Positions 35,061-56,069 of a DNA stretch of 64,000 bases are shown piece after piece. Every line of letters begins with the position of its first letter. Positions within the stretch are counted from its first letter, which is position 1. The translations under genes and the position numbers were made by a program. The notes beneath the pieces were generated by a model. The model ran no database searches, was not told where the DNA came from, and saw only the letters and a list, made by a program, of their open reading frames with translations. Origin of the DNA: an uncultured Chloroflexia bacterium (GTDB lineage Bacteria; Chloroflexota; Anaerolineae; Anaerolineales; UBA11858); NCBI GenBank assembly GCA_963824175.1, contig CAWGOD010000001.1:56712-120711 (forward strand), in the 5' to 3' direction.

Positions 35061-35092
35061 GGGACTGAGTCCTGCTAGCAGGACTCAGTCCC
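35061..35092. repeat. Palindromic element GGGACTGAGTCCTGC-TA-GCAGGACTCAGTCCC (copy 1 of 2); probable terminator of the minus-strand operon
   Basis: Perfect 15-bp arms. A near-identical element is at 47511-47543, and both copies are followed by CCTTAT. Confidence 0.7.
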
Positions 35093-35109
35093 TTATTCAA
35101 TGTCCTTTT

Positions 35110-36346
35110 TTATCCGCAGCCGCCACCAACAGGTGCTCGTTTTAGATCTAGTTCGATTTTCTTTTCATATTCAAAATGATATTCATCATGATCGGGATAG
35201 GCAGCCGGGCAATTCGATCCCAACGCGGCGTCGAATTCATAATGCAATTCTTCTACGCCGGCTTCAGTAGTATCTCCGCATATACCTTCTTCATAGGGTG
35301 TCGAAAAGGTATCCAACCAATTGTTGATCCCGCCGCTGAGGATATACACATTCGGGACCGCCTGGGCGGTCAATGTTTTCCAGACCTCAGTAGAGGTCAC
35401 TTCGTCATTGCTCATCACCACAAACACTGTATTGGCCGGCATGGCAATAAAACTCATCTATTGAATCTGGAATTTCTTCAGGTGTGATATTCTCGGCGTC
35501 AAGCAGGTGGAACAGATTATAGTCGGCTTCGCTTCTGACATCGATCATAACCAGGTTGAGTTTGTGGTCATGAAAAGTATCCAGCAGCTCGCCGGGATGG
35601 ATGTATACTTCTCTGTTTTTTAGGTCATCGCCACGGACTGATTCCAGTTTATTCCAGCGATCTGCAGTGGTGGGTTGGCCGATTATCGCGATTGCGATTG
35701 CTACGATCACCAGCACACCTGCGCCATAGTAGCGGGCTTTGGGGGCTTTTTTGGGATCCTTTTTTCCGTAGATCTTTTCCAGCTGTTCTCCACCCCAGAG
35801 CATGAATACTGCCATCAAAGTTACCAGGATGACAACGATCCCGGTCCGAAGGTTGAAGACATCCATCAAGGTTAATCTGCCGTAGTAGCTGCCGTTGAAG
35901 AAAAACTTGTATAAATCGACAGTCTCACCAAAGATGAAAACACCAACCAGGCCGCCCAAGACAAAGAAGATGCCATCGATCTTTAACGTTGCCAGCGCGA
36001 CCAGAGAAGTGCCGGGACAGAAACCTCCCAGGATGAAACCAACACCCATGATCAATCCGCCAACAATGCCGGACCAAAGATATGTGGGGTTAACCCAGAT
36101 CAGATTGTAGTCCAACAACCCAACTGCAGAACTTAGGAATAGCAGCAGCATACCCACAACGATTGCTGTGAAGAATACTTTGAACACACGCAGATCTTTG
36201 AAGTAGAACTGGGATGCCAGGCTGGGGGAGTGATTAAAACCAGAGATCTCCAGAACATATCCGAATAGGAATCCGATCAATAAAAAGACCAGATATGTTA
36301 GAGGTTTACTAAGTAAGGATTCTAGATGAAGGGGAAAGGGTATCAT
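35110..36346 (-). CDS. YeeE/YedE-family (sulfur-transport domain) membrane protein fused to a rhodanese-homology domain; frame break near 35440
   Basis: GFILGGFCPGTS motif in the TM half. The rhodanese-like LVMIDVRSEADYNLFHLLDAENI ... VFVVMSNDEVTS ... ILSGGINNW has no Cys in the active-site loop. The C-terminus is APVGGGCG. Confidence 0.7.
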
Positions 36347-36358
36347 TATTTTCTCCTA

Positions 36359-36929
36359 TTAATTCCACAGCCTGCGAACAAAATAGGCCAGAGCGTAGGC
36401 ACCACCGAAGATGGAAAACATTACCACCCAGCTGCCGGCGGAAAGTGTGGCTCCACCGGAAAGAGCTTGTCCGGAGGTGCATCCACGAGCCAGGCGAGCG
36501 CCGTAAGTGAAACAGATCCCGCCCAAGAAAGCGAATAACCAGCGGGTCTGATTGGATATATTGGGACCTTTATGAGTTTCAAATTTGGTCCGACCGTGGA
36601 TCACACCGGAAGTGAATCCGCCGATCAATACACCGGCGGTCACGATCACGATCCAGCTGTCCAGAGGATTCAGTTGACCACCAGCCATATTGATCAGATA
36701 GGGGACCTGGTCGATATGTCCGGGAGCGATTAGATCCTCGATGAAGGCAGCAATGCGGCTGAGTACCGCCGGAAGCACCCAATCCATTACCGGTGATGAA
36801 ATAAGAGGCAAATAGAACCATGCCCAATAAAACACCACCAAGATAAGGATTCGCATAAGGCTTAGAAGGCCTGTTGAACAGATCCTTCAAACGAAATTTC
36901 TGTTTTTCTGGTTTTTGATTTTCTGTCAT
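36359..36929 (-). CDS. YeeE/YedE-family membrane protein (half-size partner); frame break near 36780
   Basis: N-terminus PYLGGVLLGMVLFASYFITGNGLGASGG and C-terminal half ARGCTSGQALSGGATLSAGSW. Confidence 0.7.
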
Positions 36930-37003
36930 TTCTAGTCTCTCTTTTCTAGGCGGAGTTTATAATCTGCCATTTTTTTACTTGGAAAATACAATTCGATTGA
37001 GAT

Positions 37004-37603
37004 TAACTCTCAATGTCCTCCCAACCGGTGATCATAGCTTCAATGCTGGAAACAGCAGTATGACCGGTTGTAGTCAGGTAGATATGCAGGATCAGGAAAG
37101 CTGCAAACAGCCAGGCAATGATGGTATGGAAGGGAGCCAGGATGGGCAATCCTCCCAGGCCTTTCAGCCAGACCAGGCCAGCGCTGTAAACCCCACATCA
37201 GGGCGCCAGTGATGCCCTGAAGAGGTAAGAGCACATTCAGCAGCCCGAAATAGGTGATCTGCTGGAGAGGATTCAACTTCTTGTCAGTTGTTTTTTCAAA
37301 GGGGTGATGTTCACCTTTGAAGATACCCAGCAGGTAGTATTTGATCTGTACAAAAGTGCGGTCAAAGAAACCACGCGGTCGAGGAATATACTGCTGGATC
37401 TCTCCTGTAGCTAGATGGAAGAACAAGGACAGGAAAGCATTGACAGCAAGAATTGCTGCGATGATGTTGTGGACCAGGACCATATTCCTGAAGTTCATAA
37501 AAGCGAACGAGTCGGGCCTGTGGATTATGAATCCGGTCAGCAGCAGGATCACAATCGCCGCTGTTTGCAACCAGTGCCACAATCGCTCATAAGCCCCGTA
37601 CAT
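37004..37603 (-). CDS. Cytochrome b (Ni/Fe-hydrogenase / PhsC-type, PF01292-like) membrane subunit; frame break near 37150
   Basis: YERLWHWLQTAAIVILLLTGFIIH. The C-terminal piece PFHTIIAWLFAAFLILHIYLTTTGH...ITGWEDIES is in another frame, ending at stop 37004-37006. Confidence 0.7.
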
Positions 37604-39740
37604 ATAAATTTTCTTTGTTGGTTTTTGATGAGGCAGGATTGCGGGAAGAAAAATAGATTCTTAATCCGCCATGGGTCATCACACCCAGGAAAACAACAGC
37701 ACACAAACCTAAACCGATCCAATCCAGCCAGGCAAGGCGATTGTGGCCAAAGACATACAGCGAATCGGCCGCTGCTGCTGGATAATAGAAAATCTCTCCA
37801 TCATCATTAAATTTGATCTCACCTTCTAGATTTCTCTCGGTGCCCGATACAAAAGCTGGCAAGTTACCTCCAGGGGAGGCGGCAGCTAGTTTGATCGGTT
37901 GTGTGATCCGGGAATCATCACCATGGCAAGCAGTGCAGTCATCCAGGGCCCAATCTGCGCTGGCAACATCATGATTAATGCTGTAAGGCTGAATCTCTCC
38001 CGTGATCCGGGGATTGGAAAGCCCCAGTAGAGCCAATCTGTCTCGTACAAAATCTTCTTTGGCCTGGGAATCGATCACCATTTCATCGACGGTCAAATCT
38101 CCATCTTTATTTTCATCAAATCTCAGGATAATTCCTGGGTGATAACCGCCATTTTCGTAATAGGCGGCCTGCAGATCGGCCAGGATCACAGGACGGGGAG
38201 GATCACCGTAGACCCAGAACCAGGTTGTGATCAGGTTATGGGGCGCTAATCTCATGTTGCCGTCAATATCTGGGCTGGGGATTAATACTGGTTCAAAACC
38301 AACCAGTAAGGAACCCATTGTGTTTACATCACCTTCGGCTCCACGGCATTCTCGCCGGGGAAGGTCTCCGGGCAGCAGTACTGTCCAGTCATGGACCTGG
38401 TTGCCTGATGAATACATTTGAGGAATGTGGCAGGACTCACAGCTCAGAACGTCCAGATGGCTTTCGAGATACGGCAGCCAGTCATGGGTGCTGTCTGACT
38501 GTATGGCAGGACTCACAGGTCCTCATGGTGTCATTGAGTTCAGGAGCTACGATACTCTGGGCGCTGTTTCCCCGAGCAAATTGGTGGAGAGGTTTTTCCA
38601 GGTATTCACCGATCTCGACCCGGCGAGGATCGAACAGCAGGTGATCTGGCCTGGTTGTCTCTGATTCCTGGTAATAGAGTGGGTTGTTAATCGAATAATG
38701 GCAATCCACACAGTTCAATAAACGTTCTGCGTGTACATCCCAGGATCGATTTAGAGTTTCTTTATTGGCCAGGTTCATCCCTGAATCGGACATCTTTTGG
38801 GGTGAGATGATCTGTCCAGTCGTGATCGTACTCCAGCGTTCAGGGGCGCAGCCCAGTGTAACCAGGGGATCCTCAACATTATCATGCACAAGACCATGAC
38901 ATGCTCCGCAGTTGTTATTGGTTGGATCCTGGATCTGGATCGCTTCTGGAAGGATTTCCATGTCTTCGTCAAATAAGCTTTCATTCCAGATGTAGGAATC
39001 CCCGCTCATAGATAACAATACCTGAGCCGATCAGAGTGGAGGTGTTGACCCATTTGAAATTCCCACTTTGCAGGGCGTCTGCCCGAGCATTATTGTCTGG
39101 ACTCGGGATATGGCACAGGAAGCAGTTCATTTCAACTGAGCCAGATTTATCCCAATCCCAACGTTCCAACTTACCAGTATCCGGGTTGACGATATTGGTT
39201 TCCAAGCTGGTGCTGCTGTAAGGTAGATCAGCCAGAAGTTCTCCGTTTTTGGCATATATGAGCAGGACCGCCTCCGATATGGCGTAATCCATAGATCTGG
39301 ATCCATGCTGGAGTGGTCAGGTCTATCCTGTCATCACCCTGGGGTGAGAGGTAGCGATACTCAATTGAGTTCCAGGAACCAAACACTCCTGGGGAGGTAT
39401 CCCAGGGTCTTTCTGTAACTGTTTCACCTGGTTGGGAGATATCATTTAACCCAACGCTGACATGGTAACTGTGGTCAGCAATGAATGCTGTGTCATGACA
39501 TGCCCCACAGGTATTCATTGTGGAAATTGGATTGCCTGTTTCCAAGACATTATCCCCTGCCTCATCGAGGAAAGGGAAAGAGGGGTGCAGGGGAGAGGCT
39601 TGTTCGGTTTTTTCCTGTCCCGGGCTCGCCCAGACAACTCCCTGGGTTAGAAGGACAGCACCCAGGATGATCAGGAAAGAAATTGCTGTTATGAGGAGCA
39701 ATTTATTATATTTATTGAGTCGTGTTATTTGATTGCCCAT
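37587..39740 (-). CDS. Multiheme c-type cytochrome (at least seven CxxCH) with an N-terminal signal/anchor and a C-terminal TM segment; three frame breaks
   Basis: CxxCH motifs seen in order: CGACH, CFLCH, CGACH, CVDCH, CESCH, CESCH, CTACH. Four ORF pieces (39228-39740, 38981-39292, 38482-39018, 37587-38516) tile the region. Its 3' end overlaps the cytochrome b start by 17 nt. Confidence 0.75.
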
Positions 39741-39757
39741 ATCAACTGCATCCTTTA

Positions 39758-41210
39758 TTAGGGTCGATAACTATTGGACTGGAAACGGCCGCCCCAATCG
39801 ATCGGATCACCGTAATATCCCAGTGATTCCCAATCCATCCTGCCTTCAGGACCGTGGCATTGATCACAAGTCAGAGCTTCCGTAGCTGCTCTGACCATGT
39901 GCGTGGTTGGCCAATACATATCCGTTTCAGTGAAATCCATATTGGCCGCTGTAATCCAGGCCGGTGATATCTGCACCGAGCTGAAGGGCTAAATCCCAAT
40001 CGAATTCGGTCCAGAAACCTCCCTCGCCAAAAGTTTTTGGCTGGAGAAGGATATTATTTACAGTGTCATAAGGTTGTTTGGCAGTATGAACTTTGAAGGG
40101 AAAAACTTGGAAGATTGATCATGTGATATCACCTGCTGGCAGGTTTATGTGCACCAGCTGATCCGGATCGATCATATCTCCCAGGATATAACGTTCGGCT
40201 ACGCCGCCGTTGTACCACATGTAAACCGGAGTGAAATTGCCTTCGTATACAAAACTGCCTTTGATCTTCAAATAAGTATGAACGCTTTCCTCAATCTCAT
40301 CGCTGCCCGCTGTTGACCAATCCCAGTACATCTTGGTTGCATCCCTGGTTGCCGCATTTGGAATGTGGCAGGTCTGGCAAGCAACTGACTCAATATGGGC
40401 ATTGATGCGGTCATCCTCGTGCAAGCCTTCGTCATGGCAATCAATGCAGTAGGTCTGGTTTTCATTATCCAGGCTGACGGAGATCGATCGTCCCATAATG
40501 TTGTGGCTTTCTGTCTGGTGGCAATCAGTGCACATAAAGTCATGTTCACCCATATGGATATCCACATTGGAAGGCGGGAAGTAGAGGGTTTCATCCAGAT
40601 CACCATGTTTAACCGCATTACCTCCGCCGCCATTAAAGTGGCAGCTGCCGCAGTTTTCACGGGTTGGAGCGGCGACGCTCTGGGCGACTTCCAGCAGGTC
40701 TACACCTTCAACCGGTATGCCGGCCAGGCCTTTCACGTATGTGCCGGTATTATCATGGCATGCCAGGCAATCGACAAATTCTTCCTGATTGAAGTCAAAA
40801 TTAGCATCTTCCCATCCATAACCTGCATGACAGGAGGTGCAGCTGGGCCAGTTGCCCTGAATTCCGATACAGAAATTGTTAATCGAGTTCTTTTTCCCGA
40901 CTGTGACAGTGTTATCTCTACCTTCTATCTGATAGGGTTTGCTTTCCCAGGTCCAATGTGCTGTTGCCATGATTTCCTGAGCTGAATCTTCGTGGCATTC
41001 CAGGCAGGCCCTGGTGACTTCTTGACCGGTTTCAAAAGGGCCCTCAATGATCGCTGTGTGATCGGTGTGGGGGACTTTTAAAGGCACATTATCCCAGGGA
41101 TCCGAACTGATCGGCTTTTCTCCCCGGGGGAAGAAGATCACGATTGGGATCACAATTATAAAAAGGACAAAAACGGCACCAAATATCCAGTTGAATTTGG
41201 ATGGTTTCAT
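39758..41210 (-). CDS. Tetrathionate-reductase-family octaheme c-type cytochrome (OTR family); two frame breaks (about 40120 and 39960)
   Basis: Eight CxxCH motifs: CLECH, CTSCH, CLACH, CGSCH, CTDCH, CIDCH, CQTCH, CDQCH. Strings such as ATAHWTWES, NNFCIGIQGNWPSCTSCH, NCGSCHFNGGGGNAVKHGD and VHTAKQPYD match my recollection of the OTR family. There is an N-terminal TM anchor. Confidence 0.75.
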
Positions 41211-41213
41211 AGA

Positions 41214-41568
41214 CTACCTCTCATTGGATTGGTTATGTTTAATTAGATCAGCTTGCTGTGATAACTGGTCCAGCATAACCTCGCGGAGTATGTCCAGAGC
41301 TTGAATAAAACGTTTATCAGCCAGAGAATAGATCACCTGGGCCCCATCGCGCTGTGCCTGGATCAATCCCCTCTCGCGGAGGACTTTTAAGTGGCGTGAA
41401 GCCGCAGATTGACTGATACCCACGATCTCTGCCAGATTGTTCACATTTTGGGGTGTTTCAGCGACAGCATATAATTAATAATATCCGATTAGGTTCTGAA
41501 ATTGCGGAGCAGATCCTGGCATGCAGCTGATTGATTTCTTGGGCAAGGGGATTATTGTTCATAGACAT
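41214..41568 (-). CDS. ArsR/SmtB-family transcriptional regulator; frame break near 41450
   Basis: LHARICSAISEPNRILLI followed by NVNNLAEIVGISQSAASRHLKVLRERGLIQAQRDGAQVIYSL. Confidence 0.75.
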
Positions 41569-41791: not shown

Positions 41792-42688
41792 TTAACCTTC
41801 GAGGGCGGTGGTTATGAAATCCCAGAAGGCATCTCTTGCTGCAGTGGTCAATTGAGTTTTGTCCCTGGCAATATATAAACCCTGTTTGATATTGATATCT
41901 TTAATTGGAACAGCCACAGTTTCGCTGATCGCGGATGAAATTGTGGTGGAGCTAAAACTAAGACCCAAACCTTTGTTTACAGAGAGGGCAATAGCTTCGG
42001 CATTGTCCAGGGTCAGGAAAGAATCCAGCTGAAGGAGGGACAGGTTTTTGGATGCCAGAGCCTCATTTACTTTCATATAGGTTTTTGTATTCGCTGCGGG
42101 AAGAATAAATTTTTCTCCTAGCAGTTCCTCAACTTCGATGAATTCGCGTTTTGCCCAGGGATGATCTTTGGGTGTGATCAGCATAATTTCATCCGTCAGC
42201 AGATGTTGAGACTTGGAAGCAGGGCTCGACTATATTTTCAAGATTTGTGAATAAGAAGTGAATATCTCCACTACGAAGGGTATTCAAGAGGAAAATTACA
42301 GGTATCAGTCTGGCAGGCGATTGTCACTTCCGGGATACAAATCGTGGAATTGAGAAAAGAATTCCGGTAGTTTATATCTTCCAGTGAGAGCGTTGCATCT
42401 GATGCTTATCCTGCCTTTGATATGCCCCTTTAGGGATGACATGGCTTCATTGATCCTGGTGCTTTGTTTAACGAACTGCTGGGCCATTGGGATCAATACC
42501 CGACCGGCATCCGAAAGGATCAAAGATCTTCCCTGTCTGATAAAAAGCACCTCTTCAAAGTGTTTTTCCAGGGACCGAATATGCTGACTGACACTTGGTT
42601 GACTCATATGCAGCCGTTCAGCAGCCTGGGTGAAATTCAAAGTATCTGCGGCGACCAGAAATATGTTAAGTTGGTGGGCATCTAACAT
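41792..42688 (-). pseudogene. LysR-family transcriptional regulator with at least three frame breaks between 42185 and 42330
   Basis: N-terminal HTH LNIFLVAADTLNFTQAAERLHMSQPSVSQHIRSLEKHF (ORF 42305-42742) and C-terminal effector domain (ORF 41792-42184). The linking segment is readable only by switching frames. Confidence 0.65.
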
Positions 42689-42837
42689 GGGATTCTCTAG
42701 GAGGATACTTGATAATTTATTAGTAATCATTATTATATCCAAAAGAAATTATTATGGGTAATCGATTCTGACCCTCTAATTTCAATTTCTAAAACTAGAA
42801 TAAACAGTCCTGTTTGAAAAATCATCCTTTCTGATAA

Positions 42838-42901: not shown

Positions 42902-44134
42902 TTAATGTGCTGCCTCTTCGTCTTTGGGGTAGATTGGCAGGTACTTTATGCCAAAACTGAAAGCAAGCAAAGCGTAAGCGATGATACCGATGGAAACTAT
43001 GATCTCATTCCAGGTAGGCAGGTAGGAAACTGTGATCAAATTGCCAAGTACACCCGGGGACCACTGTGGCGGGGCGACCAATCCAGAGAGGGTTACATTC
43101 CAGCGATTTACTGTTACTCCTGCGATGATTGCTCCCAGCGCCAGCATCGTATAGCGATCATTTTTCCTGAAGTTTGCATTTAGCAGGATGATGGCCGGTA
43201 CGAATGCCGCCCAACACGATCTCAATCCACCAGAAGGTTCGGGTATAAGGAGTGGTTGATTGCAGTAATGCCAGAGCCTCGGTTGTACCGGGAGAAGTGC
43301 TGTAATAGGAAGTAGCCGCCCAATCCCAGATCTTTAGATAAAGGTAGGCCAGAAGGGCATATCCAGCGAAGCGGGAGATATCATACTGCAGTTCCCGGCT
43401 GATAATTTGCCGTCTGTTCAGTTTGCCGACGAAAATGGTTAACAACAGGGTCATGGATATCCCTCCGGCAATAGCGGAGAGAATGAACATCACCGGCAGG
43501 GAAGGTTTGTACCAGATAGCTCTTCCTGACAACACGCCGTATGTCGCTCCCAGGGAGGATTGATGGAGCAGGGATAATCCCAATCCGATAGCGGCAAAAA
43601 CAGGTGATGCCTTGTGGATCAGATCACCATACTTACGAAGATTAGGCCAGCGGTCAAAATATTTACCCTCGAGCAGGATCGGTAAGAATTCCAGCACAAG
43701 CACGATGGAATAAAGGATCACACACCAGGTGATTTCCCATAAAACAGAGTGAACATTCCAGTAAACCAGGGGATGCCAGAACCTGTCTGGCCGGCCGATA
43801 TCCATGGCCAGGGCAAGCATGGCGGATGTATACCCAAGGAATCCCACAAAAACAGCGGCACGGGCGATGGGTTGGTATTTTTTGATCCTGAACAGGTAAA
43901 CAATTGCCGAGAATGTGAACGCACCGGCTCCTGTTGCGATAGAACTCAGGTCCTGGGTGATCCACAAGACCCCAGGGGACCTGGTCAGACAAACCAGTCA
44001 CATGCAAACCTTTGACAAAAACCCGGATGGCGCCGAATACTACCAACGGCGAGCATCAAACCAAGAACACCGATCCAGATCCACCAGGCACGCTCTCGGC
44101 CTTCTTTAGGAATGGAAAGATCAAATTTAAACAT
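42902..44134 (-). CDS. NrfD/PsrC-family polytopic membrane quinone-interacting subunit; about three frame breaks
   Basis: MFKFDLSIPKEGRERAWWIWIGVLGLML..., GLSDQVPWGL, and MDIGRPDRFWHPLVYWNVHSVLWEITWCV. The ATG at 44134 directly abuts the upstream stop (TAGATG). Confidence 0.75.
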
Positions 44135-44978
44135 CTATACTTCCTCCTTTTCAGGGCGGACATAATGAACATTGGGTTTTGTCCCAAAATCCTCCCTCAG
44201 GCGGAAGGTTTCATTATCTTTAACAAAAATAGAAACCGGACTTTCTGGATCATTATGATCACCAAAAACACGGGCGTTCACAGGACAGATATTCACACAT
44301 GCTGGTGTGGCTTCCCGGTCAACTCCCGGCGTTAATCCCTGGGCCAGCCCGCGATCGATTCTGTGACTGCAGAAGGTACATTTTTCCACCACGCCCCGGG
44401 ACCGGCGCTCAATTTCCGGCGATCCCCAGGTGGGTTGATAGGGATTTTCTTTTTTGGATAACTTCCCAGTTAAACCGCCTGACATCATAAGGGCAGGCAA
44501 CTTCGCAGTAGCGGCAGCCAATGCAGCGTTTGTAGTCCATGGTGACGATGCCATCTTTGCGCTTCCAGGTCGCACCGACTGGACAGACTTTCACGCAGGG
44601 AGCTTCTTCGCAATGCAGACAAGGGTCTGGTCATAAAAAACTCTGTTCCGCTTTCAGTACGCTCGGGATGTCCCACATTCCAGCGCATGTCATCATCAGG
44701 AACATCATTGGTTGCCTGGCAAGCCCAGAGGCAGTACTGGCAGCCGATGCATTTGCTGAGGTCGATAGCCATACACCAGGAATGTTCGGATTTCCCTTCT
44801 TCGCCATGGGTTTTTTCGCCAATACCTTGGATCGCATCTGGGGACAGGGGTCCCGATGTGATCAGCTGAGTGACCAGCGCTGCTGCACCTGTCGACCCGG
44901 CGATCTGTAAAAATTCCTTTCGTGATACCAGGGATTTCTTATTAGTAGATTTTCCAGAGATCCCTTTTTAGAGATCAT
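44135..44978 (-). CDS. Periplasmic four-cluster [4Fe-4S] protein (PsrB/NrfC/HybA type) with a Tat-like signal; about three frame breaks
   Basis: [17 protein letters not shown]; [11 protein letters not shown]; [14 protein letters not shown]; [12 protein letters not shown]; CTFCSHR...[18 protein letters not shown] precedes the ATG at 44978. Confidence 0.75.
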
Positions 44979-47510: not shown

Positions 47511-47543
47511 AGGGACTGAGTCCTTCAAAAGGACCCAGTCCCT
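47511..47543. repeat. Palindromic element AGGGACTGAGTCCTT-CAAAA-GGACCCAGTCCCT (copy 2 of 2); probable terminator
   Basis: It shares the GGGACTGAGTCC arm and the CCTTAT flank with 35061-35092. It lies between the convergent LysR and DsrE-like genes. Confidence 0.65.
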
Positions 47544-47578: not shown

Positions 47579-47938
47579 TTAGAAACTAAAGGTAATAGTG
47601 GCGTCTTCGATTTCCATCAAGAAGGGTGGGGCTTTGGTGATCTTGATCCTGTCATCGCGCAGATCTTTGGGATCGATACCTTTGTTTTCAAGTGCCAGTT
47701 CGCACAGGATCATTTCAGCGCCAAGATCCATGATCGTATCAAATAACTCAACAGGATTGGGTAGACCCTTGGGGGTGCCCAGTGTTTCCAGCTCGCCTTT
47801 CAACATCCAGCGGGCGCCGGCGGGACAAATAAACACCACAACTTCATTATCAAGTGCCAGGCCTGAAGACGACATGATCAGGGTGGGCATGATGTTGGCA
47901 GGTCCATCGCCATTGCAGGTAATTGCCATTTTAGCCAT
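47579..47938 (-). CDS. DsrE/DsrF-like (COG2210-type) small sulfur-relay protein
   Basis: 119-aa ORF. VVVFICPAGARWMLKG and MILCELALENKGI are paralogous to the ORF at 49343-49717. Confidence 0.65.
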   Translation of the reverse strand: MAKMAITCNGDGPANIMPTLIMSSSGLALDNEVVVFICPAGARWMLKGELETLGTPKGLPNPVELFDTIMDLGAEMILCELALENKGIDPKDLRDDRIKITKAPPFLMEIEDATITFSF

Positions 47939-48007: not shown

Positions 48008-49015
48008 TTAGTTATCTTTTTTCTGGGGCAGAACAAACATCACATAGGATGCCGCCCACGCGCCCAGGAAGATCGATACACCAGCTAAGATGGATCCCAG
48101 GGAAAGCTGGGGAATACCACTCAGCAGATGGCCGATATTGCAGCCACCAGAGGTTACTGCGCCAAATCCCATCAAAAGACCGCCTGCGAAGGTTTGAAGC
48201 AGGACAAGAGGTTTGGGCATACGGAATTTGAATTCCTTGGAGATCAGAGCGGCAACAAAGCCTCCGACAACAATACCGATGATTAGCATTCCGATCCAAT
48301 TAAAGGTTGCACCTGTGAATATAACCTGGACGATGTTGATCCAACCTGCGGTGATGCCAAGTGGATAGTTACGGCCAGCAGCGGCGGACAGCGGGAAGGC
48401 CAGAATGCCAACCAGGCCGACCAAGATACCTGTGTTCAGCCAGCCCCAACCCGGGTCAGCTTCACATTCTTCATTCTTGGATTTGGCAACAAAGTACCAA
48501 ACCACAACAGCGATCAAAGCAAGGATGATCGCCAGGGTGGTGTAGTCCATACCCAGGATTCCATGCAAGGTCAAAGCTTTGTCATCTGCTCCGGAGATTG
48601 TTGTGGCAGCTTGCAGGTTGGCTTTGAAGGGTTTCAGGAACCCAGAAGCGGTGATATAACCAGCTGTGGCCAGGCCGAGAACTGCAGTCATTGAACCAAC
48701 CATACCTTCACCAGTACGGTAAGTGATGCCGCTGGCACATCCGCCAGCCAGAACCATACCGATACCAAATATAAAGCTACCCAGCAGGTTTGCTCCCCAC
48801 CAGAAAGGTTTGGGGTTGATGGCAATGGCGCCAACTGCATCCATAAGCGCAAATCCGACCAATTCAACCAACAGTGCGGCGAATACAGTTTTCAGGAGGA
48901 CGTTGTCCTGCAGCAGGATAGCGTCTCTGAAGGCTGAGTTCATGCAGAAACGTCCCCTCTGCAGAACAAAACCAAACAAAACACCTACAAATAATCCAGT
49001 TAATACAGCTTCCAT
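48008..49015 (-). CDS. yeeE: YeeE/YedE-family thiosulfate-type transporter (full length)
   Basis: 335-aa multi-TM ORF with three Cys contexts: RGRFCMNSAF, AGGCASGITYRTGEG and SGGCNIGHLLSG. Confidence 0.8.
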   Translation of the reverse strand: MEAVLTGLFVGVLFGFVLQRGRFCMNSAFRDAILLQDNVLLKTVFAALLVELVGFALMDAVGAIAINPKPFWWGANLLGSFIFGIGMVLAGGCASGITYRTGEGMVGSMTAVLGLATAGYITASGFLKPFKANLQAATTISGADDKALTLHGILGMDYTTLAIILALIAVVVWYFVAKSKNEECEADPGWGWLNTGILVGLVGILAFPLSAAAGRNYPLGITAGWINIVQVIFTGATFNWIGMLIIGIVVGGFVAALISKEFKFRMPKPLVLLQTFAGGLLMGFGAVTSGGCNIGHLLSGIPQLSLGSILAGVSIFLGAWAASYVMFVLPQKKDN

Positions 49016-49045: not shown

Positions 49046-49294
49046 CTATTTCAATCCATGTGCTTCGATCAGCATACGGTGGTTGGGTCCATCCAATTGT
49101 TCAACTTCGATCAGTTTATGGCCTTGTTTTTTGAGGTTGCGCGGAATCCTTTCCACTGAAAGTGGATAATCCAGCAGCACTTCCAGGACTTCACCCTTTT
49201 CCATTTTTTTCAGTGTGGTCATGGTGTTCATGTCAGGGTAAGGGCAGATCTTTCCACAGACATCCAGGGTTTTAGTGGGGGATACTTCGCTCAT
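49046..49294 (-). CDS. TusA/YeeD-family sulfur carrier protein
   Basis: 82-aa ORF with LDVCGKICPYP (the CPxP motif of TusA/SirA-like proteins). It lies immediately upstream of yeeE. Confidence 0.8.
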   Translation of the reverse strand: MSEVSPTKTLDVCGKICPYPDMNTMTTLKKMEKGEVLEVLLDYPLSVERIPRNLKKQGHKLIEVEQLDGPNHRMLIEAHGLK

Positions 49295-49342: not shown

Positions 49343-49717
49343 TTAATAACTAAAGGACATTTTGGCGCCTTCCGCTTCAAAGAGGAATGTTGAGGCCATC
49401 ATGACTTCCACACCTTCAACCAGATCTTCCTCTTTCATGTCCCAGATCGGCAAACCGAGTTCACAGAGGATCACCCGACCGTCCAGGACCTGGATGGCAT
49501 CAAAAAGATCTACAGGATCTGGTTGGCCCTTGAGGTTTTGGTACTTTTCCAGGGCGCCTTTCTTGAGGATCTTTGCGCCGCCTGGCTGGATGAATAACAG
49601 TACTTCATCACCTGTGGCAGCTACAGCTGCGCTCATAACCAGAGCAGCCATGACACTTTGTTCGTTATCGTTGTTCAGTACAACTACAATCTTCTCGGTC
49701 TGGAATTCTTCAGTCAT
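49343..49717 (-). CDS. DsrE/DsrF-like (COG2210-type) small sulfur-relay protein
   Basis: 124-aa ORF with VLLFIQPGGAKILKKG and VILCELGLPIWDM. Confidence 0.65.
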   Translation of the reverse strand: MTEEFQTEKIVVVLNNDNEQSVMAALVMSAAVAATGDEVLLFIQPGGAKILKKGALEKYQNLKGQPDPVDLFDAIQVLDGRVILCELGLPIWDMKEEDLVEGVEVMMASTFLFEAEGAKMSFSY

Positions 49718-49775: not shown

Positions 49776-50951
49776 CTATTGACTTGCAGGAACTAATTCC
49801 TCTTTAGGCCGTTCACTGATCTCAACCGCTTTCAGCCTGACTTGCTGGAAATAGATCGCCAGAGGTCGGTAATATAGGTGGGCCCATTTTCCAAAGGGTA
49901 CTTCCAGAACCAACATTGGGAAGGCTGCGGCCAGGTGGATCACATAGGTATAGTAGGTTGCCAGAGGCAAACCCAGATACCGGAAGGTATGCTGGAAAAT
50001 ACCTGTCAGGGTCACCGTGATCAAAAGAACGGGGAAGATCCAGTCACTGGGGTGGGAGAATTTATGAAGCGGCCTTGACTGTTTAATCCGTCCTATGATC
50101 ACAGATCCCGCACCGTATAGCAAAACAGCGGTAGCATAGTATCCCAACCAGCGTTGAGGATTGGTGATGGGATAAATTTCATCGGTTTGTAACCAGGGAA
50201 GGAAGAACATTACCAGGACCAGCATCAGACCATAACCACTGGCCATCAGCATATGGTTGATCCAGGGCAATCGTTTGTAGTTCTTTTCCTTTTCATCATC
50301 CTCATCCTCGGCACATTCACTCCATCTCATCTGAGTCAGGAGGTGGAGAACTCCATGCCAGGCTTCAGTGATGTAAACTGAGATCGGAACTTTGACAGCT
50401 GTTCCTTTGCTGATGACCATGTGGTGCATGCGCAGGACATTGGTTCCGATAAAGAAAACCAGGCCGGCAGCCATTATCCAGTCCGCAGTGTGCATCAATT
50501 CCACAGGAGCGAAGGTATTCAGCTCAACGGAGCTGGTTACGATCGGTCCATGAAGAATGACAGCCAGAATAACGATAAAGATAGCTGTAATGATCATGGC
50601 ACCGAACTCCCATAGTTTGGAGGTATAAAACTTGCCAGCCAAGCCGGTCCAGTCATATTGCGCGGTTAACCAGCGCCTGACAGCCATCATGGTCTCACCA
50701 GGTTCGGCTTGCTTTGGGCATGTTAGGGAGCAATCTCCGCAGTAGTAGCACAACCATGGGTCAATGCTTTCCTTGAGGTTATCTTTCAATCCCAGCTGAA
50801 CCATGCGGATCATATCCCTTGGGAAGGGATGATCTGTACTTGTCAGGGGGCAGATCGCGGTGCAGTTGCCGCAGTTGAAACATTTTTCGATATCTACGGC
50901 CCCAAATTCCTTGAGGTCATGCATTAAAGTAGGGTCCACTCGTGTGGCCAT
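49776..50951 (-). CDS. QmoC-like membrane protein: N-terminal HdrC-like two-[4Fe-4S] domain fused to an HdrE/NarI-like multi-TM cytochrome b domain
   Basis: CFNCGNCTAICP and CYYCGDCSLTCP are followed by about six hydrophobic segments carrying His residues. The likely start is MATRVDP at 50951, after a GGAGGAG RBS. Confidence 0.7.
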   Translation of the reverse strand: MATRVDPTLMHDLKEFGAVDIEKCFNCGNCTAICPLTSTDHPFPRDMIRMVQLGLKDNLKESIDPWLCYYCGDCSLTCPKQAEPGETMMAVRRWLTAQYDWTGLAGKFYTSKLWEFGAMIITAIFIVILAVILHGPIVTSSVELNTFAPVELMHTADWIMAAGLVFFIGTNVLRMHHMVISKGTAVKVPISVYITEAWHGVLHLLTQMRWSECAEDEDDEKEKNYKRLPWINHMLMASGYGLMLVLVMFFLPWLQTDEIYPITNPQRWLGYYATAVLLYGAGSVIIGRIKQSRPLHKFSHPSDWIFPVLLITVTLTGIFQHTFRYLGLPLATYYTYVIHLAAAFPMLVLEVPFGKWAHLYYRPLAIYFQQVRLKAVEISERPKEELVPASQ

Positions 50952-50955
50952 ATTG

Positions 50956-51249
50956 TTACTCCTCCATCCGCCTGTAAAGGACATATTCGCCATCCATACC
51001 GTCTTCCCGCACCAGGTCGTATTTCTTTAAAGCTGTCAGGAACCATAAAACACGATGGGTTGGCAGTTCGATCTGGGAGGCAATTGTGGGCACAGTCATC
51101 GATTCATCCTTGATCAGTTTCAAGATCCCTCGCTCGACTTTGCCCTGCTCCTTTAATAGTGCCTGGGTCCGATCTACAGTTTCTTGGTGTTTAGTGCGCA
51201 ACTCCTTGAGGTTCTGAGTTCGCTTTTTTGCTGCTTCTTTATCGCTCAT
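50956..51249 (-). CDS. Small (97 aa) coiled-coil plus winged-helix-like protein, translationally coupled inside the operon
   Basis: Its ATG overlaps the upstream stop (ATGA at 51246-51249), and its stop is 4 nt before the QmoC-like start. The segment MTVPTIASQIELPTHRVLWFLTALKKYDLV looks like an HTH/wHTH. Confidence 0.6.
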   Translation of the reverse strand: MSDKEAAKKRTQNLKELRTKHQETVDRTQALLKEQGKVERGILKLIKDESMTVPTIASQIELPTHRVLWFLTALKKYDLVREDGMDGEYVLYRRMEE

Positions 51250-53284
51250 TGTGCAACCTCCATCATTTCATCGATATCAAGAGCAATTGCATCAAGCATG
51301 GCATCGTACTGTGGGATGGTCCAACCCTGGACCTCTACGGCCTGGTTGGGGCAGGCGCTAACGCAGCAGCCGCAGCCAGTGCAGTTTGCAGGAGAGACAA
51401 CTGCTCGTTTCACCATCTTTCCATTCAGTTCAACATCTTTGACCGCGATGGCATCTTCATAATTACAGACAGTGACACATTCACCTGTGCCTGTGCATTT
51501 TTCGAGGGTCGACCTCGGCCACAAAAGGTTCCAGTTCTACCTTGCCCAGACTGAGCAGGGTAGATACTTTTGCTGCAGCTGCAGAGGCCGCCGCGCAGCT
51601 TTCCTGACACGTCATCGGTCCCTGGGCGGTACCTGCCAGGATCACCCCTGGTACAGCGGTTTCAACAGGTCGGAGTTTGGGGTGGACCTCTGCCAGGAAG
51701 CGGTCATTCCCGCGGGAGATTTTGAGCATTTTCACCAGGTCATCAATATCCCGGGGTTTAATGCCAACTGCCAGTACGACCAGGTCTACTGCAATTTCCA
51801 GTTCTTCTCCCCGGGTGAGATGATCACGCATCTCAACCAGGACGGGGTGAGTATCGCCCGCTTCAGCTTTCTTAACGGTCGGTCGGTCATCACCATGGAA
51901 CCGCAGGAAACGGACCATCTGCTCAAGGGCGTCAATATAATATTGCTCGTGGCCGCGTCCATAGGTTCGGATATCTTCGTACAGGTCGTAGATATTCAGT
52001 CCCGGGAAACGTTCTTTGAGTGTATTAGCCATGTGGAGATTTGCTGTGCAGCAAACCCGGGAACAGTAATCGTTCACATTCCCGTCTTCCTGGGGTTCAT
52101 GGACACCATCTATCTCACGGCTTCCAACACAATGCACCATGGCGATATCACGGACAGGGTGGCCATTCCAAGATAATTTTTCGCCATCTTTCATCAGACT
52201 TAGATAGCGGATCAGGGCCGGCAGGGTGACAACTTCTGGGATTTCACCAAAACCAAATTCTCCCTGACGTGGTTGGTAAGGATCGAATCCTGTTGCAACA
52301 ACAATCGCGCCAGCATGGAGGGGGATGGAGACGGGTTCATTCTTTAGAACAATATCTTTGCCATCCACCTGGATCGGAGAGCCATCATAGTTTTCCCAAT
52401 CAACTGCGGGAGTGTGCGGATAGCAGCCGGGATAGGCTTTGTAAACCACTTTTCGGTCAGTTAAACCATAGTTGAATTCGTCTGGGACTGTTTGCTTGCA
52501 GGCCGCCATGACTTTTTCACCATTGGTATCATCCACACCGCGCGATTCCTGCTGGATCTGTACCTGGTAGTCGCCTACGTATCCAGTTACATTCTTGATC
52601 TGGGCCTGCGTATAGATCACGATATTGGGATGGGTGGTTACTTTATTGATCAGGTCATGAAGGGTATCTTTAGCATCTTCATTGGTTGGGAAAAGGGTAT
52701 CTAACTGGGCAATCCTGCCACCCAGGAAGGGAGATTTTTCTACCAACGTAACTCGGAGTCCCCGGCGGGCGATATCATAGGCAGATTTCAGTCCAGCAAT
52801 ACCTCCACCGATGACCAAGGCATGCTTTTCAGCGGTTAACTGGATCGGGGCCAGGGGATCAAGCAACCTGGCTTTAGCTAAACCGGCTGACATCAAGCGA
52901 ATTGCTTTGGAGGTTGCGCCTTCACAGTCACTTCTATGCACCCAGCTGTCCTGTTCTCGAATACCAACATGGTGGTACAGATAAGGGTTCAATCCTGCTC
53001 TGGTAACAGCTGCCCGGAAGGTCTGTTCATGAAGAGATGGGGCACAAGCGCCAATCACAACTCGATTAACGCCTTTTTCCTTGATATCCTCTTCGATCAT
53101 TGACTGTCCCAGCGTCGGAGCACATGGCCATATTGGTTCGTGAGACAACTACATTGGGGAGATCAGCTAATTTCTCTCTGACAAATTCACAATTAACAAC
53201 ATCACTGATATTTCCCCCGCAATAGCAGGTGTATACGCCAATCTTGATCTCTTCATTTTCTTTGTTAGGCATAGACATCCTCAC
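51246..53284 (-). CDS. HdrA-family flavoprotein (QmoB-like position): N-terminal Cys domain, FAD domain, C-terminal two-[4Fe-4S] ferredoxin domain; two frame breaks (about 53130 and 51500)
   Basis: IGVYTCYCGGNISDVV..MCSD..GACAPSLHE; VIGGGIAGLKSAYD; VHCVGSRE...YCSRVCC; C-terminal CTGTGECVTVC and CTGCGCCVSACP. Confidence 0.75.
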
Positions 53285-54590
53285 TTTCTTTATTCACACT
53301 CGGGGATTCTTTTAGGGATTCAATATAAGCAGCCGCTTCCGCTGCTGCAGAACCGGACATGACGATGCTGTCTACAATATCCATCGGTCCAGCTGATGTG
53401 CCGGCCGACGAATATTCCATCCCTTTCAGTCAGGCAGGGATATGAGTTGGTTTGGGGAATATTGATGAATCCATCGTCCCCCAGGGAAACATTGAACATC
53501 GCTTCCGGATCGTATTGAGGAAGCAAACCCACTGAAAGGACAGCAAGATCGTGAGTATTCTCAACTACTTGGGATCCTTCATCTATCAATTCCACACGCA
53601 GAACAGGGTTCTGGTTTTCATCCTGTTTGATGGAAGCAACTTTGCCTTTGATGAATTGAATGCCCATGGCTTTGGCGGTTTGGATAGAATTGTTCGTATC
53701 CTTTGCCAAAGGTTCGGATATCCATGTAATAGATAGTGATATCCGCCATGGGGAGAGATCCAGCCAGCAGCATAGCCTGTTTGATGGCATACATGCAGCA
53801 AACCCGGGAGCAGTACTCCACACCCAAGGTGGCGTCTCTAGATCCGGCGCACTGGATATAGGCGATCGAATCTGGTTCTTTTCCGTCGCCGGGGCGGATC
53901 ACACGGCCGTAAGGACCGGTGGGAGCCAGAAGGCGTTCCATGAACATGGCATTGATGACATTACGATTTTCTGCTGCGCCATACTCTTTTTTGGCCAGGC
54001 GTGAAGTAGTTTCAAATCCTGTGGCCAGGACGATAGCGTTAGCTGCAATTTCGATCGTCTCGGGCTGCTGAGTGAAATCAATACAATTCACAGGACAGGC
54101 TTTTTCACATTTGCCACATAGGATGCAGTTCTCAATATCCAGGACTGCATATTGAGGGATGGCAGTGGAAAATGGCACCCGGACGGCTTTGGTTGCGCCG
54201 TAATCTAGGTCAAAGGGATTCGGTAAATTGATCGGGCAGGCATATTCACACTGCCTGCAGCCTGTACAATCCTCTTCGTTGATATAGCGGGGTTTTTTCA
54301 ATACTTCAGCTGTGTAAACCTTCCCCGGTTTTCGTGAGGTTCTGAACCTCATGATAAGTAAGTAATTGGATATTGGCATGATGGGCTACGGCAGACATCT
54401 TAGGTGTTGTGATGCAGCTGCAGCAATCCAGAGTTGGGAAAACTTTACTGAGGGCAATCATCTTGCCGCCAATACTGGCTTCCTTTTCCACCAATGCGAC
54501 CTGGTATCCCTGATCTGCAAGATCAAGGGCAGTTTGCATACCGGCAATGCCGCCGCCAACAACAAGAGCATCCACTTGAATTTTTCTCAA
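53265..54590 (-). CDS. HdrA-family flavoprotein (QmoA-like position) with an inserted two-[4Fe-4S] ferredoxin domain; three frame breaks
   Basis: VVGGGIAGMQTALDLA; FPTLDCCSCI; CTGCRQCEYACP; CILCGKCEKACP; IQCAGSRD..YCSRVCCMYA. The tail AGTSAGPMDIVDSIVMSGSAAAEAAAYI lies in a fourth frame. Confidence 0.75.
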
Positions 54591-54656
54591 GGTTGTATCT
54601 CCTCTTTTGTGTGCGACTGTGTCAGAAAAAATCTTATAATCATGGATAAGGGACCT

Positions 54657-55110
54657 TCAGGCAGCAACCTTTTCACCACTAGAAAAAGCTGCCATTTCGT
54701 CTTTAACGAACCCGATTTCATATAGAAGTAGGTTCATCGCATTGACTTCCTTCAGGAAGGGTTTGGTGCAGACTGTACAAATTGCGGCCAATTTTAAGCG
54801 GCGGGTGTCTATTCCGAGTTCTTTCATCTTCGGGTAGGTTTTGTTGACCAACTGAGCTGCTCGTTCAGCGCCACCTTTATAGGGACTGTCTGTGCCGCTG
54901 TACATAACGATCACGCCGTCAATACCTCGTTTGAAGATCCTGAGGTAAAACTCCTCGTTAAACATGCTGGGGCATAGCACTGGCAGGATATAGGTGTTGT
55001 TGGGATAGTCTGTATGTAACTGTCCCACCGCATCTGCTCCCGCATATCCTCCCGAGGTGGTTGCAAGGATGAGAATTTTTGGTGTGTTGCAATCTGACCT
55101 GATTTTCCAT
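54657..55110 (-). CDS. MvhD-like (methyl-viologen-reducing hydrogenase delta subunit family) protein with most canonical Cys positions substituted; frame break near 55075
   Basis: KILILATTSGGYAGADAVGQLHTDYPNNTYILPVLCPSMFNEEFYLRIFKRGIDGVIVMYSGTDSPYKGG aligns by eye to the MvhD pattern (CCNWC.YAGAD...YP.NV.I..V.CSG.....F..GADGV.V.GC..GDCHY). Confidence 0.55.
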
Positions 55111-55185
55111 AATAATTTCCTCTATGCAGGCATAGAAGTATCCCGCAAAATGACAATAACTGCGGGATACTTGGAATGGTACGTT

Positions 55186-55438
55186 TTATTTCTTGCGGCG
55201 AATAAAAGTCTTTCGTATCCGTCGGCTTGTATTCGCCCAGATACTCGTGTCCAACCTTGGCACACCAGCGGGGCATATCATTTTTGGTATTGGGATCACC
55301 GGCCCAAAGTTCGAGTATTTCGTCAATTTTTACTTTTCCGATGCTTTTTTTGGCTTCCAGCAATGGTCCGGGGCAGGCCATTGCCCGGGCATCAACTACT
55401 TCTGCAGCGACAATTTTTTCTAGTTCTTCTGGGGACAT
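55186..55438 (-). CDS. TusA-family sulfurtransferase; probable 1-nt frame break near 55205
   Basis: DARAMACPGPLLEAKKSIGKVKIDEILELWAGDPNTKNDMPRWCAKVGHEYL. With a single-base correction the C-terminus reads ...DFYIRRKK*. Confidence 0.75.
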
Positions 55439-55473
55439 TTCTTTCTCCTTATCGATTGATAATAAATATTTAA

Positions 55474-55759
55474 TTAACTGTTCTTTGAGATGATTGGACA
55501 GATCTGATTGAATTTTGTATCTGCAAGCCTGTAGTAAATTTCCCTTCCATCTCTACGAGAATGCAAAACACCTTTGTTTTTCATCAGCCGTAAATGCTGT
55601 GATGTGTTCTGCATTGATGCATCAATCTCCTCAGAGATCTCGCTTACAGTTAATTCCCGGTTTCCTAAGAGCCCAAACGATCATGATCCTGTGGGCGTTT
55701 CCCAATATGGCGCAAAATTCTGCCTGTTCCTGAGCTTCAGTGATCTCAATTGGGTTCAT
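55474..55759 (-). CDS. ArsR/SmtB-family regulator with two Cys placed as in persulfide-sensing members (SqrR/BigR/sHdrR type); frame break near 55672
   Basis: MNPIEITEAQEQAEFCAILGNAHRIMIVWAL / GNRELTVSEISEEIDASMQNTSQHLRLMKNKGVLHSRRDGREIYYRLADTKFNQICPIISKNS. Confidence 0.7.
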
Positions 55760-56069
55760 AAGAAACTCTCAATCAATTAAACGATTACTTAACTACATGA
55801 CTATTGAGAGTATAGGATTGAGGTAGGATTTGAATAAGTGCAATTAATCACAAGCCCTATCAACCTTATGAATAAGAGGTCATAGATGAAATTTATAGCG
55901 GTTTTTTTGATGAATTTTCCGCTGCCAAGTATGTCTTTACGGATGTTTTGGACAACTCTGTGTAATTAGTGTTTTTAAAGGCTTGAAGCAGTTCAAAATA
56001 AAATAAAGATTTCTGGTAATTTGGAATACACCTTGTTAGAATACAGGTAATCAGTCTTAGGAGAGGTTT

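Follow-up and report, generated by a model that had tools for sequence, protein, structure and literature searches.

A probable conserved neighbourhood of two sulfur operons and an accessory cytochrome module in uncultured Anaerolineales

Sediments, soils and digesters are rich in Anaerolineales, a group usually seen as plain fermenters. The octahaem tetrathionate reductase (OTR) family is known for the reduction of tetrathionate to thiosulfate; to our knowledge, the natural substrate of OTR has been unclear ever since its structure was solved. SoxY is a sulfur carrier with a C-terminal GGCGG arm that binds sulfur species covalently. Concerning sulfur uptake, YeeE has nine transmembrane helices and a cytoplasmic C-terminus (PMC11073785, PMC11582611), at which YeeD is located (PMC11073785), and PmpA and PmpB are halves of YeeE (PMC11582611). 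DsrE and TusA are carriers that form thiosulfonates with tetrathionate (PMC4175335). In Desulfolithobacter, the proteins of the YedE-TusA-DsrE-Chp-Chp (YTD) cluster rise in thiosulfate disproportionation, along with a tetrathionate-reductase-type enzyme (PMC9751629), and an otr-soxY association is reported for lucinid symbionts (PMC11237559). Homologues of several of these systems lie together between nrdR and an SDR gene in the DNA analysed here, a 64-kb window (64,000 nt; positions 56,712 to 120,711 of contig CAWGOD010000001.1, assembly GCA_963824175.1) from an uncultured bacterium of the Anaerolineales.

The region, taken as the nrdR-to-SDR interval (approximately 35.1-55.8 kb; all positions are those of the window), is, in our judgement, rather probably a conserved chromosomal neighbourhood of one clade of uncultured Anaerolineales, made of two autonomous sulfur operons and an accessory cytochrome module, neither mobile nor decaying, and with frame breaks that are sequence errors. 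Module 1 (operon A) holds OTR, a heptahaem cytochrome c fused to a cytochrome b, and a YeeE transporter in two halves; module 3 (operon B) combines a Qmo-like set with TusA, DsrE and YeeE; module 2, between them, comprises an octahaem cytochrome, an iron-sulfur protein and an NrfD-family subunit. Coding is on the minus strand throughout, except for the regulator gene LysR1 (46534-47487) and an 81-nt gene remnant (46315-46395), a layout that a preliminary description, made from the sequence alone, had given correctly according to the open reading frame (ORF) coordinates. The gene families named there were recovered by Pfam and NCBIfam profile matches, and its figure of at least 23 CxxCH haem motifs agrees with a frame-independent count of codon patterns in the DNA (8 + 7 + 8 = 23 across the three cytochrome genes), two other CxxCH lying elsewhere on the minus strand of the region and four outside it, on both strands. 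The parts belong to known families. Neither the operon of OTR, heptahaem cytochrome-cytochrome b and split YeeE, nor the Qmo-like/TusA/DsrE/YeeE architecture, nor the half-YeeE family with a GGC(G) tail was found in the literature searched, nor are any of the region's genes mentioned in a paper that deals with sulfur use in a cultured Chloroflexota strain from the deep sea.

Species-representative genomes were scanned with the YeeE of module 3, which gave eleven close relatives, all uncultured Anaerolineales (L001-L011; L numbers are our labels for the loci compared), whose YeeE is 74-92% identical in amino acids and whose nucleotide identity over the region is about 82%. L001, L003, L005 and L083 have the three modules in colinear order. 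Module 2 is missing from L002, L081 and L082, and module 1 from L009, which has kept the last ~210 nt of the final gene: this scar (12768-12983) holds a 71-codon ORF corresponding to the C-terminal end of the YeeE-rhodanese protein, GGGCG tail included, beside nrdR, so that module 1 was once present there. The three modules adjoin only in the clade of the window, where single modules are lost with scars.

Elsewhere, they mostly occur apart. The YeeE-centred genome scan found the complete module-3 core at 40 loci, 29 of which extend at least 8 kb beyond YeeE; 20 of these 29 have neither OTR nor the iron-sulfur/NrfD module, and haem-rich ORFs lie beyond LysR1 at nine of the 30 LysR1 loci. An OTR-centred metagenome scan found OTR, the multihaem cytochrome-cytochrome b fusion, the YeeE C-half and the YeeE N-half-rhodanese gene in invariant order on 30 contigs, with a GC content of 0.51-0.65 and unrelated flanks; none of the 30 bears a module 2 or 3 gene. 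Among the OTR loci, 42 reach 8 kb or more, and 25 of these have the split YeeE pair, always in the same order. Since they are mostly found apart in both scans, modules 1 and 3 are regarded as autonomous operons. The preliminary description had taken the 20 kb for one island and had proposed synteny comparisons with relatives; what these show is, for the greater part, independent occurrence, with modules separate elsewhere, lost singly within the clade and native in composition.

As for composition, GC ranges over 0.42-0.51 inside the region vs. 0.43-0.50 outside, and tetranucleotide correlation with the rest of the window is 0.82-0.91 inside vs. 0.85-0.95 for flanking chunks. No tRNA, flanking direct repeat or other sign of mobility was found. 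The k-mer and GC profile that had been suggested as a check is therefore ordinary and gives no support to a mobile island; a foreign origin is not supported by GC, tetranucleotides, tRNAs or repeats, and the borders are conserved in relatives. The border genes are as follows.

34523-35002, plus strand: nrdR, left border (ORF, translation), with a terminator hairpin of its own behind it at 35022-35048
56070-56861, plus strand: SDR gene, named fabL earlier, right border, intact (ORF, translation)

nrdR borders on module 1 in L081 and, in L009, on the scar that module 1 has left, while the SDR gene adjoins the module-3 ArsR gene in L001, L002, L004, L005, L006, L008 and L036.

Module 1 comprises five genes.

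41217-41568, minus strand: ArsR/SmtB-family regulator, 117 residues; +1 insertion near 41474
39761-41210, minus strand: OTR homologue, 483 residues, N-terminal membrane anchor; indels near 40123 (+1), 40105 (-1) and 39935 (+1)
37006-39740, minus strand: heptahaem cytochrome c with a C-terminal dihaem cytochrome b (Ni_hydr_CYTB, PhsC-like), one gene, 910 residues; +1 insertions at about 39260, 39013, 38497, 37628 and 37166
36362-36929, minus strand: half-YeeE, C-half, PmpA-like, 189 residues; +1 insertion near 36764
35110-36346, minus strand: half-YeeE, PmpB-like (N-half, helix H7, H8-like helix), in fusion with a rhodanese-like domain that has the tail KRAPVGGGCG (Pfam Sulf_transp and Rhodanese); +1 insertion near 35453

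The OTR orthologue of L002 scored 572.7 bits against TIGR04315 (cut-off 375), and the OTR of the window has eight CxxCH and matches PDB 1SP3 from Shewanella oneidensis with E = 4e-149 over 421 residues. In the alignment, its GKKNS motif falls on residues 55-59 of 1SP3, and G105, K106 and K107 are invariant in six homologues; the lysine is the one that we take to be Lys56 of 1SP3, the unusual haem ligand and active-site lysine. By score, haem sites and lysine, the gene belongs to the family, and tetrathionate reductase activity is predicted. The Shewanella enzyme differs from the OTR found here, which has an N-terminal anchor and stands in an operon with the heptahaem cytochrome-cytochrome b fusion and a split YeeE, and also from that of L040 and L042, which is fused to a second multihaem domain. 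The multihaem cytochrome and cytochrome b had been listed as separate genes; they form a single ORF of 910 residues in L002 and 950 in L038, and the repaired gene of the window likewise encodes 910 residues, stop-free and with seven CxxCH.

Two side observations concern distant OTR loci. In L150 (9740-14979; GC 0.70), OTR is followed by the split YeeE pair, whose tail ends ...AAGVCS, and then by a 9-haem cytochrome, which shows that the OTR-YeeE link holds there though the cytochrome partner has moved. On the distant contig L157 (9917-16121), OTR is followed by HdrC-like, HdrB-like, HdrA-like and MvhD-like genes, and no YeeE is present.

Concerning the two YeeE genes of module 1, residues 18-228 of the rhodanese-fused half (YeeEc) align with residues 4-211 of the module-3 YeeE (motif GGFCPGTS), and residues 25-182 of the other half (YeeEn) with residues 185-324 (ARGCTSG). 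Each half thereby keeps one conserved pore Cys, as is expected of a split YeeE of the PmpAB type (PMC11582611). Because the pair represents the two halves of one transporter, the three YeeE transport units counted in the preliminary description come down to two. Compared with PmpA and PmpB, the module-1 halves are longer (189 residues, and a membrane domain of about 225 residues), and the N-half differs from PmpB in keeping H7 and the H8-like helix, followed by a rhodanese-like domain devoid of Cys and a GGCG tail. It differs from the YeeE-YeeD pair as well: in place of the cytoplasmic YeeD partner, it has a GGCG tail that is predicted to be extracytoplasmic.

The rhodanese-like domain matches PF00581, yet the catalytic Cys is missing from all 19 homologues compared, the active-site loop being (M/I/V)(S/G)N(D/G)(E/D) in 18 of them and VSDDE in that of L150. 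It lacks, in other words, the loop Cys by which a rhodanese sulfurtransferase is recognised. The GGCG tail is terminal in all 120 close homologues, and among 150 representatives at no more than 50% identity nearly every full-length protein ends in GGCG, GGC, EGC or GGCS after a stretch rich in Lys and Arg. The family counts 265 clusters at 50% identity (E <= 1e-30; P0001-P0270; L081 5633-6868), all bearing generic names only. No Pfam family covers the last ~65 residues, and no SoxY domain was detected. Across 87 members, the loop that precedes the last helix contains 4.8 Lys and Arg, consistent with a rhodanese domain on the outside, and we predict that this domain and its GGCG arm are extracytoplasmic, on the same side as OTR. 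A cytoplasmic location, by analogy with YeeD, was rejected on the alignment of the half to YeeE and on these counts.

The tail thus resembles SoxY in its Gly-Gly-Cys-Gly C-terminus, invariant in close relatives, and in its predicted extracytoplasmic position, and differs from it in sitting on a rhodanese-like domain that is joined to a membrane channel and in lacking SoxZ, SoxXA and SoxB. The half-YeeE family with the GGC(G) tail is a candidate for a new type of membrane-tethered sulfur carrier.

Module 3 comprises eleven genes.

55477-55762, minus strand: ArsR-family regulator; single-base indel(s)
about 55190-55438 (boundary approximate), minus strand: tusA (TusA1), CPGP motif; single-base indel(s)
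about 54660-55109 (boundary approximate), minus strand: mvhD-like gene; single-base indel(s)
53268-54590, minus strand: QmoA-like HdrA-type flavoprotein, 440 residues; three insertions
51249-53284, minus strand: QmoB-like HdrA-type flavoprotein, 678 residues; two insertions
50956-51249, minus strand: conserved 97-residue winged-helix-like protein, intact
49776-50993, minus strand: QmoC-like membrane subunit (iron-sulfur, haem b), intact
49343-49717, minus strand: dsrE, intact (Pfam, synteny)
49046-49294, minus strand: tusA, CPYP motif, directly upstream of yeeE, intact
48008-49015, minus strand: yeeE, full-length, three conserved Cys, intact (Pfam, synteny)
47579-47938, minus strand: second dsrE, intact (Pfam, synteny)

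The two DsrE paralogs had been recognised early on, and both match Pfam. The module-3 YeeE scores 263.5 bits against PF04143 over profile positions 1-310 and carries the motifs RFCMN, GGCASG and GGCNIG; with its full-length Sulf_transp domain, three Cys and an adjoining TusA-family gene directly upstream, it resembles the YeeE/TsuA-YeeD/TsuB pair (PMC11073785).

The remaining genes recall QmoABC, with two HdrA-like flavoproteins, a membrane subunit that joins an HdrC-like iron-sulfur domain to transmembrane helices, and an MvhD-type module. The QmoC-like protein matches the qmoC model NF038018 end to end with 199.4 bits, below its cut-off of 300, and thus fails as an equivalog; the flavoproteins score 547 (QmoB-like) and 474 (QmoA-like) bits against the HdrA2 model, also below its cut-off of 1100, and contain FAD-binding Pfam domains. 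The set differs from QmoABC in that MvhD is a separate gene, that the gene of the 97-residue protein (without PDB relative or significant family match) is inserted, and that its partners are TusA, DsrE and YeeE. No aprBA or sat is present among the genes assigned from nrdR to the SDR gene, nor among the ORFs scanned at 0.5-14 kb of the window. Compared with the YTD cluster, YedE/YeeE, TusA and DsrE are adjacent here too, but in the order dsrE-tusA-yeeE-dsrE and joined to a Qmo-like complex, with the second DsrE and the QmoC-like gene at the flanking positions, and the analogue of the tetrathionate reductase is the haem enzyme OTR instead of a molybdoenzyme.

Contigs of archaeal assignment (Asgard, Bathyarchaeia and others; L071, L063, L055-L080) also have close YeeE-TusA pairs, with 43-52% identity on YeeE. 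One of them, L071 (Promethearchaeota), has TusA, MvhD, two HdrA-like and QmoC-like genes nearby, and so part of module 3 crosses domains.

The ArsR proteins of modules 1 and 3 were rejected as persulfide sensors of the BigR/SqrR type, tested at Cys42 and Cys108 of BigR, because their Cys positions differ: the module-3 protein has a Trp at the Cys of the BigR motif 'vCtl' and a pair of its own, Cys16 and Cys88, and the module-1 protein has a single Cys. A Cys seven residues upstream of a conserved Arg, in the first helix pair (ICSAISEPNR, FCAILGNAHR, LCLAMGNSVR), is shared by the ArsR regulators of the modules (window 41217-41568 and 55477-55762; L038 15505-15906; L040 14799-15128; L042 2672-3004); the second Cys of the module-3 protein lies near its C-terminus.

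Module 2 and the features between it and module 3 are listed below.

44971-46001, minus strand: octahaem cytochrome c, 341 residues in relatives; at least eight single-base indels
44138-45010 (5' end approximate), minus strand: periplasmic-type 4x[4Fe-4S] protein, DsrO/QrcC/NrfC-like; two +1 insertions
42905-44134, minus strand: NrfD-family membrane subunit, 409 residues, QrcD/HmcC-like; three +1 insertions
46315-46395, plus strand: remnant, last 27 codons of a four-rhodanese lipoprotein gene (tblastn 67% identity, E = 3e-5), followed by a hairpin at 46429-46448
46534-47487, plus strand: LysR1, intact; the gene points towards module 3 and away from module 2

What module 2 has in common with Qrc, DsrJOP and Hmc-Nhc is its set of a multihaem cytochrome, a Tat-type four-cluster iron-sulfur protein (the L005 orthologue bears a Tat-like leader, SRKEFL) and an NrfD-family subunit. 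Its scores lie at or below the equivalog cut-offs (DsrO 196.8/200, QrcD 295/570 and QrcC 168/400 bits), and it differs from Qrc and DsrJOP in lacking a molybdopterin-like QrcB and DsrMK, and in that a cytochrome of its type is fused to OTR in distant relatives. Both loci with this fusion (757-761 residues, 15 CxxCH; L040 17433-19706 and L042 14353-16638) have genes for the Tat-type iron-sulfur protein, NrfD and ArsR after it, and module 3 adjoins. In L038, an extra pair of OTR and cytochrome b comes after module 3 and is itself followed by module 1, so that OTR-type modules stand beside the Qmo-like operon in at least three arrangements (window clade, L038 and L040/L042). The fusion appears to tie OTR to a quinone complex of the module-2 type and is suggestive of a functional link among the modules.

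The lipoprotein gene of which the remnant is the end is intact in L006 (pair at 12609-15923), L008 and L036; there, it forms with an 11-haem (11 CxxCH) cytochrome an extra pair that is divergent from module 2. Partial versions were found in L003, L005 and L009. As for LysR1, it is kept beside the end of module 3 in most loci, and for this reason is assigned to module 3 and not to module 2.

Taken together, the modules allow a pathway reading that we consider plausible, in which we infer the substrates, which way electrons flow, what the Cys arm does and whether there is flux between the operons. The cytochrome b domain would take electrons, most likely from menaquinol, and hand them on, through the heptahaem domain of the same protein, to OTR, which is anchored at the outer face of the membrane and would reduce an oxidised sulfur compound, tetrathionate to thiosulfate. 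The product would be taken up by the split YeeE channel, at whose mouth the GGCG arm would hold sulfur species covalently in the manner of SoxY. Through the YeeE of module 3 and its adjacent TusA, thiosulfate or sulfane sulfur would be imported and then carried by the two DsrE and the second TusA, while the Qmo-like complex (MvhD, two HdrA-like and QmoC-like subunits) would exchange electrons between carrier-bound sulfur and the quinone pool. Module 2 would serve as a Qrc/DsrJOP-type quinone module without a catalytic subunit of its own, giving a second route between quinol and extracytoplasmic cytochromes.

A further step, which we put forward tentatively and hold to be possible at best, is that the otr operon represents an undescribed and widespread respiratory device, in which an outer haem reductase is combined with a covalent cysteine swinging arm at the mouth of YeeE: tetrathionate or a related polythionate would be reduced, its thiosulfate moiety passed straight into the cell and, in some Anaerolineales, processed by the cytoplasmic, quinone-linked reductase of carrier-bound sulfur made of the Qmo-like complex, TusA and DsrE. 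If true, this would supply the physiological context that OTR has long lacked. For the enzyme, the conserved OTR-YeeE operon suggests a physiological role that can be tested, and the OTR-sulfur channel and Qmo-like-TusA/DsrE operons would give Anaerolineales a part in the cycling of tetrathionate, thiosulfate and polysulfide.

Several points weigh against the neighbourhood as we interpret it. The Qmo-like set misses the QmoC equivalog cut-off and has neither an Apr partner in the region nor an HdrB/C-type subunit. The topology of the Cys arm is predicted from homology and the positive-inside rule. Since most copies of the operons stand separately, no flux between them need be assumed. In vitro, nitrite and hydroxylamine are reduced by OTR as well (Atkinson et al. 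2007, cited in PMC11237559), so that homology does not fix its substrate. Finally, the indels that break the frames are unevenly spread and spare 46.3-51.2 kb and 55.9-59 kb, and uniform random error would not give such a pattern.

The alternative that survives best is that of the preliminary description: the three modules as one co-inherited island and a single chain that reduces sulfur compounds outside, imports them and processes them on cytoplasmic carriers coupled to the quinone pool. Colinearity in four loci, the three arrangements of OTR modules beside module 3 and the fusion of OTR to a module-2-type cytochrome speak for it, as does a palindrome common to modules 1 and 3.

35060-35093, unstranded: perfect palindrome AGGGACTGAGTCCTGC-TA-GCAGGACTCAGTCCCT, at the 3' end of module 1
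47511-47543, unstranded: second copy with these arms, at the 3' end of module 3; a T-run comes next on the minus strand

The two modules had indeed been said to end in the same palindromic element, and a search of the whole window for its arms bears this out: the palindrome AGGGACTGAGTCCT...AGGACTCAGTCCCT (AGGGACTGAGTCC) occurs at these two places only, both between convergent genes. With up to two mismatches, five arm matches were seen vs. 0.44 expected, four of the five being the arms of the two hairpins. At the L081 site orthologous to 35060-35093, AGGGATTGAGTCC...GGACTCAATCCCT, changes on both arms preserve stem pairing, and the site orthologous to 47511-47543 has a near-identical hairpin in L004 and a diverged one in L001 and L003. 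On these features, the palindromes behave as terminator hairpins, and the one at 47511-47543 is the predicted terminator of module 3.

Against a single chain stand the 30 complete copies of module 1 in the OTR-centred scan, all of them alone, the 20 of 29 sufficiently flanked loci at which module 3 is alone, the close relatives that miss single modules, and the native composition without tRNAs or flanking repeats; moreover, neither operon needs the other, as each is equipped with an importer and a regulator. We therefore consider one co-inherited chain unlikely. What remains of the sulfur chain first proposed is its theme of sulfur and extracytoplasmic electron transfer and the coupling of OTR to import through YeeE, seen in the conserved four-gene operon of the 30 contigs; what falls is the single unit.

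The operons could also work in the oxidative direction, with thiosulfate or sulfane sulfur oxidised, TusA and DsrE feeding an Hdr-like complex as in sHdr sulfur oxidisers, electrons flowing via QmoC to quinones and OTR acting as a thiosulfate dehydrogenase. It is established that sulfur oxidisers supply an Hdr-like complex through TusA/DsrE cascades (PMC11094781, PMC4175335), SoxT proteins, which are YeeE-like, bring in sulfur that is to be oxidised (PMC11582611), and the flavoproteins match HdrA models best. However, no CCG-domain subunit of the HdrB/HdrD type was found in the Pfam scans of operon B, and no lipoate-binding protein is present among the assigned genes of the region. Oxidation into the menaquinone pool would, in addition, run uphill, since the potential of the tetrathionate/thiosulfate couple lies far above that of menaquinone, and cultured Anaerolineae are known as anaerobic fermenters. 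The oxidative direction is thus quite unlikely.

A role of the cytochrome modules in nitrogen-oxide detoxification or respiration (nitrite, hydroxylamine) or in extracellular metal reduction, with sulfur carriers nearby by chance, deserves still less credence and is to be called improbable. It could draw on the in vitro activities of OTR cited in PMC11237559 and on weak matches of the multihaem domains to MtrC/MtrF-type and DmsE-type models. Yet the sulfur channel that follows OTR at 25 of the 42 longer loci in constant order, and the extracytoplasmic four-rhodanese lipoprotein that relatives have beside module 2, are difficult to reconcile with it, and no nitrogen-cycle gene is found among the families assigned across the region by Pfam scans.

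We return to the preferred interpretation, a conserved neighbourhood whose frame breaks are errors. For the stretch 35.1-55.8 kb, nucleotide alignments with relatives revealed about 33-37 single-base indels that break a frame, almost all of them +1 insertions in the window and outside homopolymers, by which a long-read error of the homopolymer type was rejected. They hit both ArsR genes, OTR, the multihaem cytochrome-cytochrome b gene, both half-YeeE genes, LysR2, NrfD, the iron-sulfur protein, the octahaem cytochrome, QmoA, QmoB, MvhD and TusA1, and at the points where the window changes frame, the orthologous ORFs of relatives are uninterrupted. Removal of the inserted bases restored a full-length protein in eight of the ten genes tried, a set that includes the 910-residue cytochrome, the 440- and 678-residue flavoproteins, the 409-residue NrfD, the half-YeeE, both ArsR and a 316-residue LysR2. 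The other two were OTR, in which one stop was left with the +1/-1 pair uncorrected, and the iron-sulfur gene, whose start coordinate was wrong. No accumulated stops or larger deletions inside genes were met in this repair.

Essential cell-wall genes served as a control. At 18-25 kb (18317-25374, plus strand), murF, mraY, murD and ftsI (ftsI/PBP2) each come as a series of pieces that match successive parts of the family profile. In the same dcw stretch, ftsW is without the C-terminal end of its profile. The frame offsets between the pieces mostly fit +1 shifts, and patchy single-base errors, for the most part +1 insertions outside homopolymers, mark the window as a whole. Because these genes are broken likewise, the frame breaks are read as errors of sequence and not as biology. 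A truly decaying locus, with real frameshifts and most genes pseudogenes, would account for so many indels in 20 kb, for their uneven spread and for the true deletion scars of the clade (the remnant at 46315-46395 and that of the YeeE-rhodanese gene in L009), but is highly improbable given the breaks of the same kind in murF, mraY, murD, ftsI and ftsW, the near-exclusive +1 insertions amid otherwise well-conserved codons, and genes free of piled-up stops and larger deletions. Apparent pseudogenes in such windows need a comparison with essential genes before decay is called.

The same applies to the second LysR gene of the region.

41792-42742, minus strand: LysR2, 316 residues once repaired; +1 insertions at about 42335, 42282 and 42214; intact orthologues in L001, L005 and L009

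Described earlier as decayed, LysR2 has three +1 insertions within 120 nt, and their repair gives 316 uninterrupted residues. As indels of this kind strike its neighbours too, it is not specially decayed.

Identity to relatives varies along the region. Fragments of module 1 are 88-98% identical to L002, and other fragments mostly 80-95% to their closest relative; at the nucleotide level, module 1 reaches 90% identity to L002 vs. about 82% for the remaining region. The QmoC-like gene (49776-50993) is 94% identical to L001 and 57% to L002, while its neighbours are about 84-95% identical to both. These mismatches in identity suggest recombination or allele exchange among close relatives.

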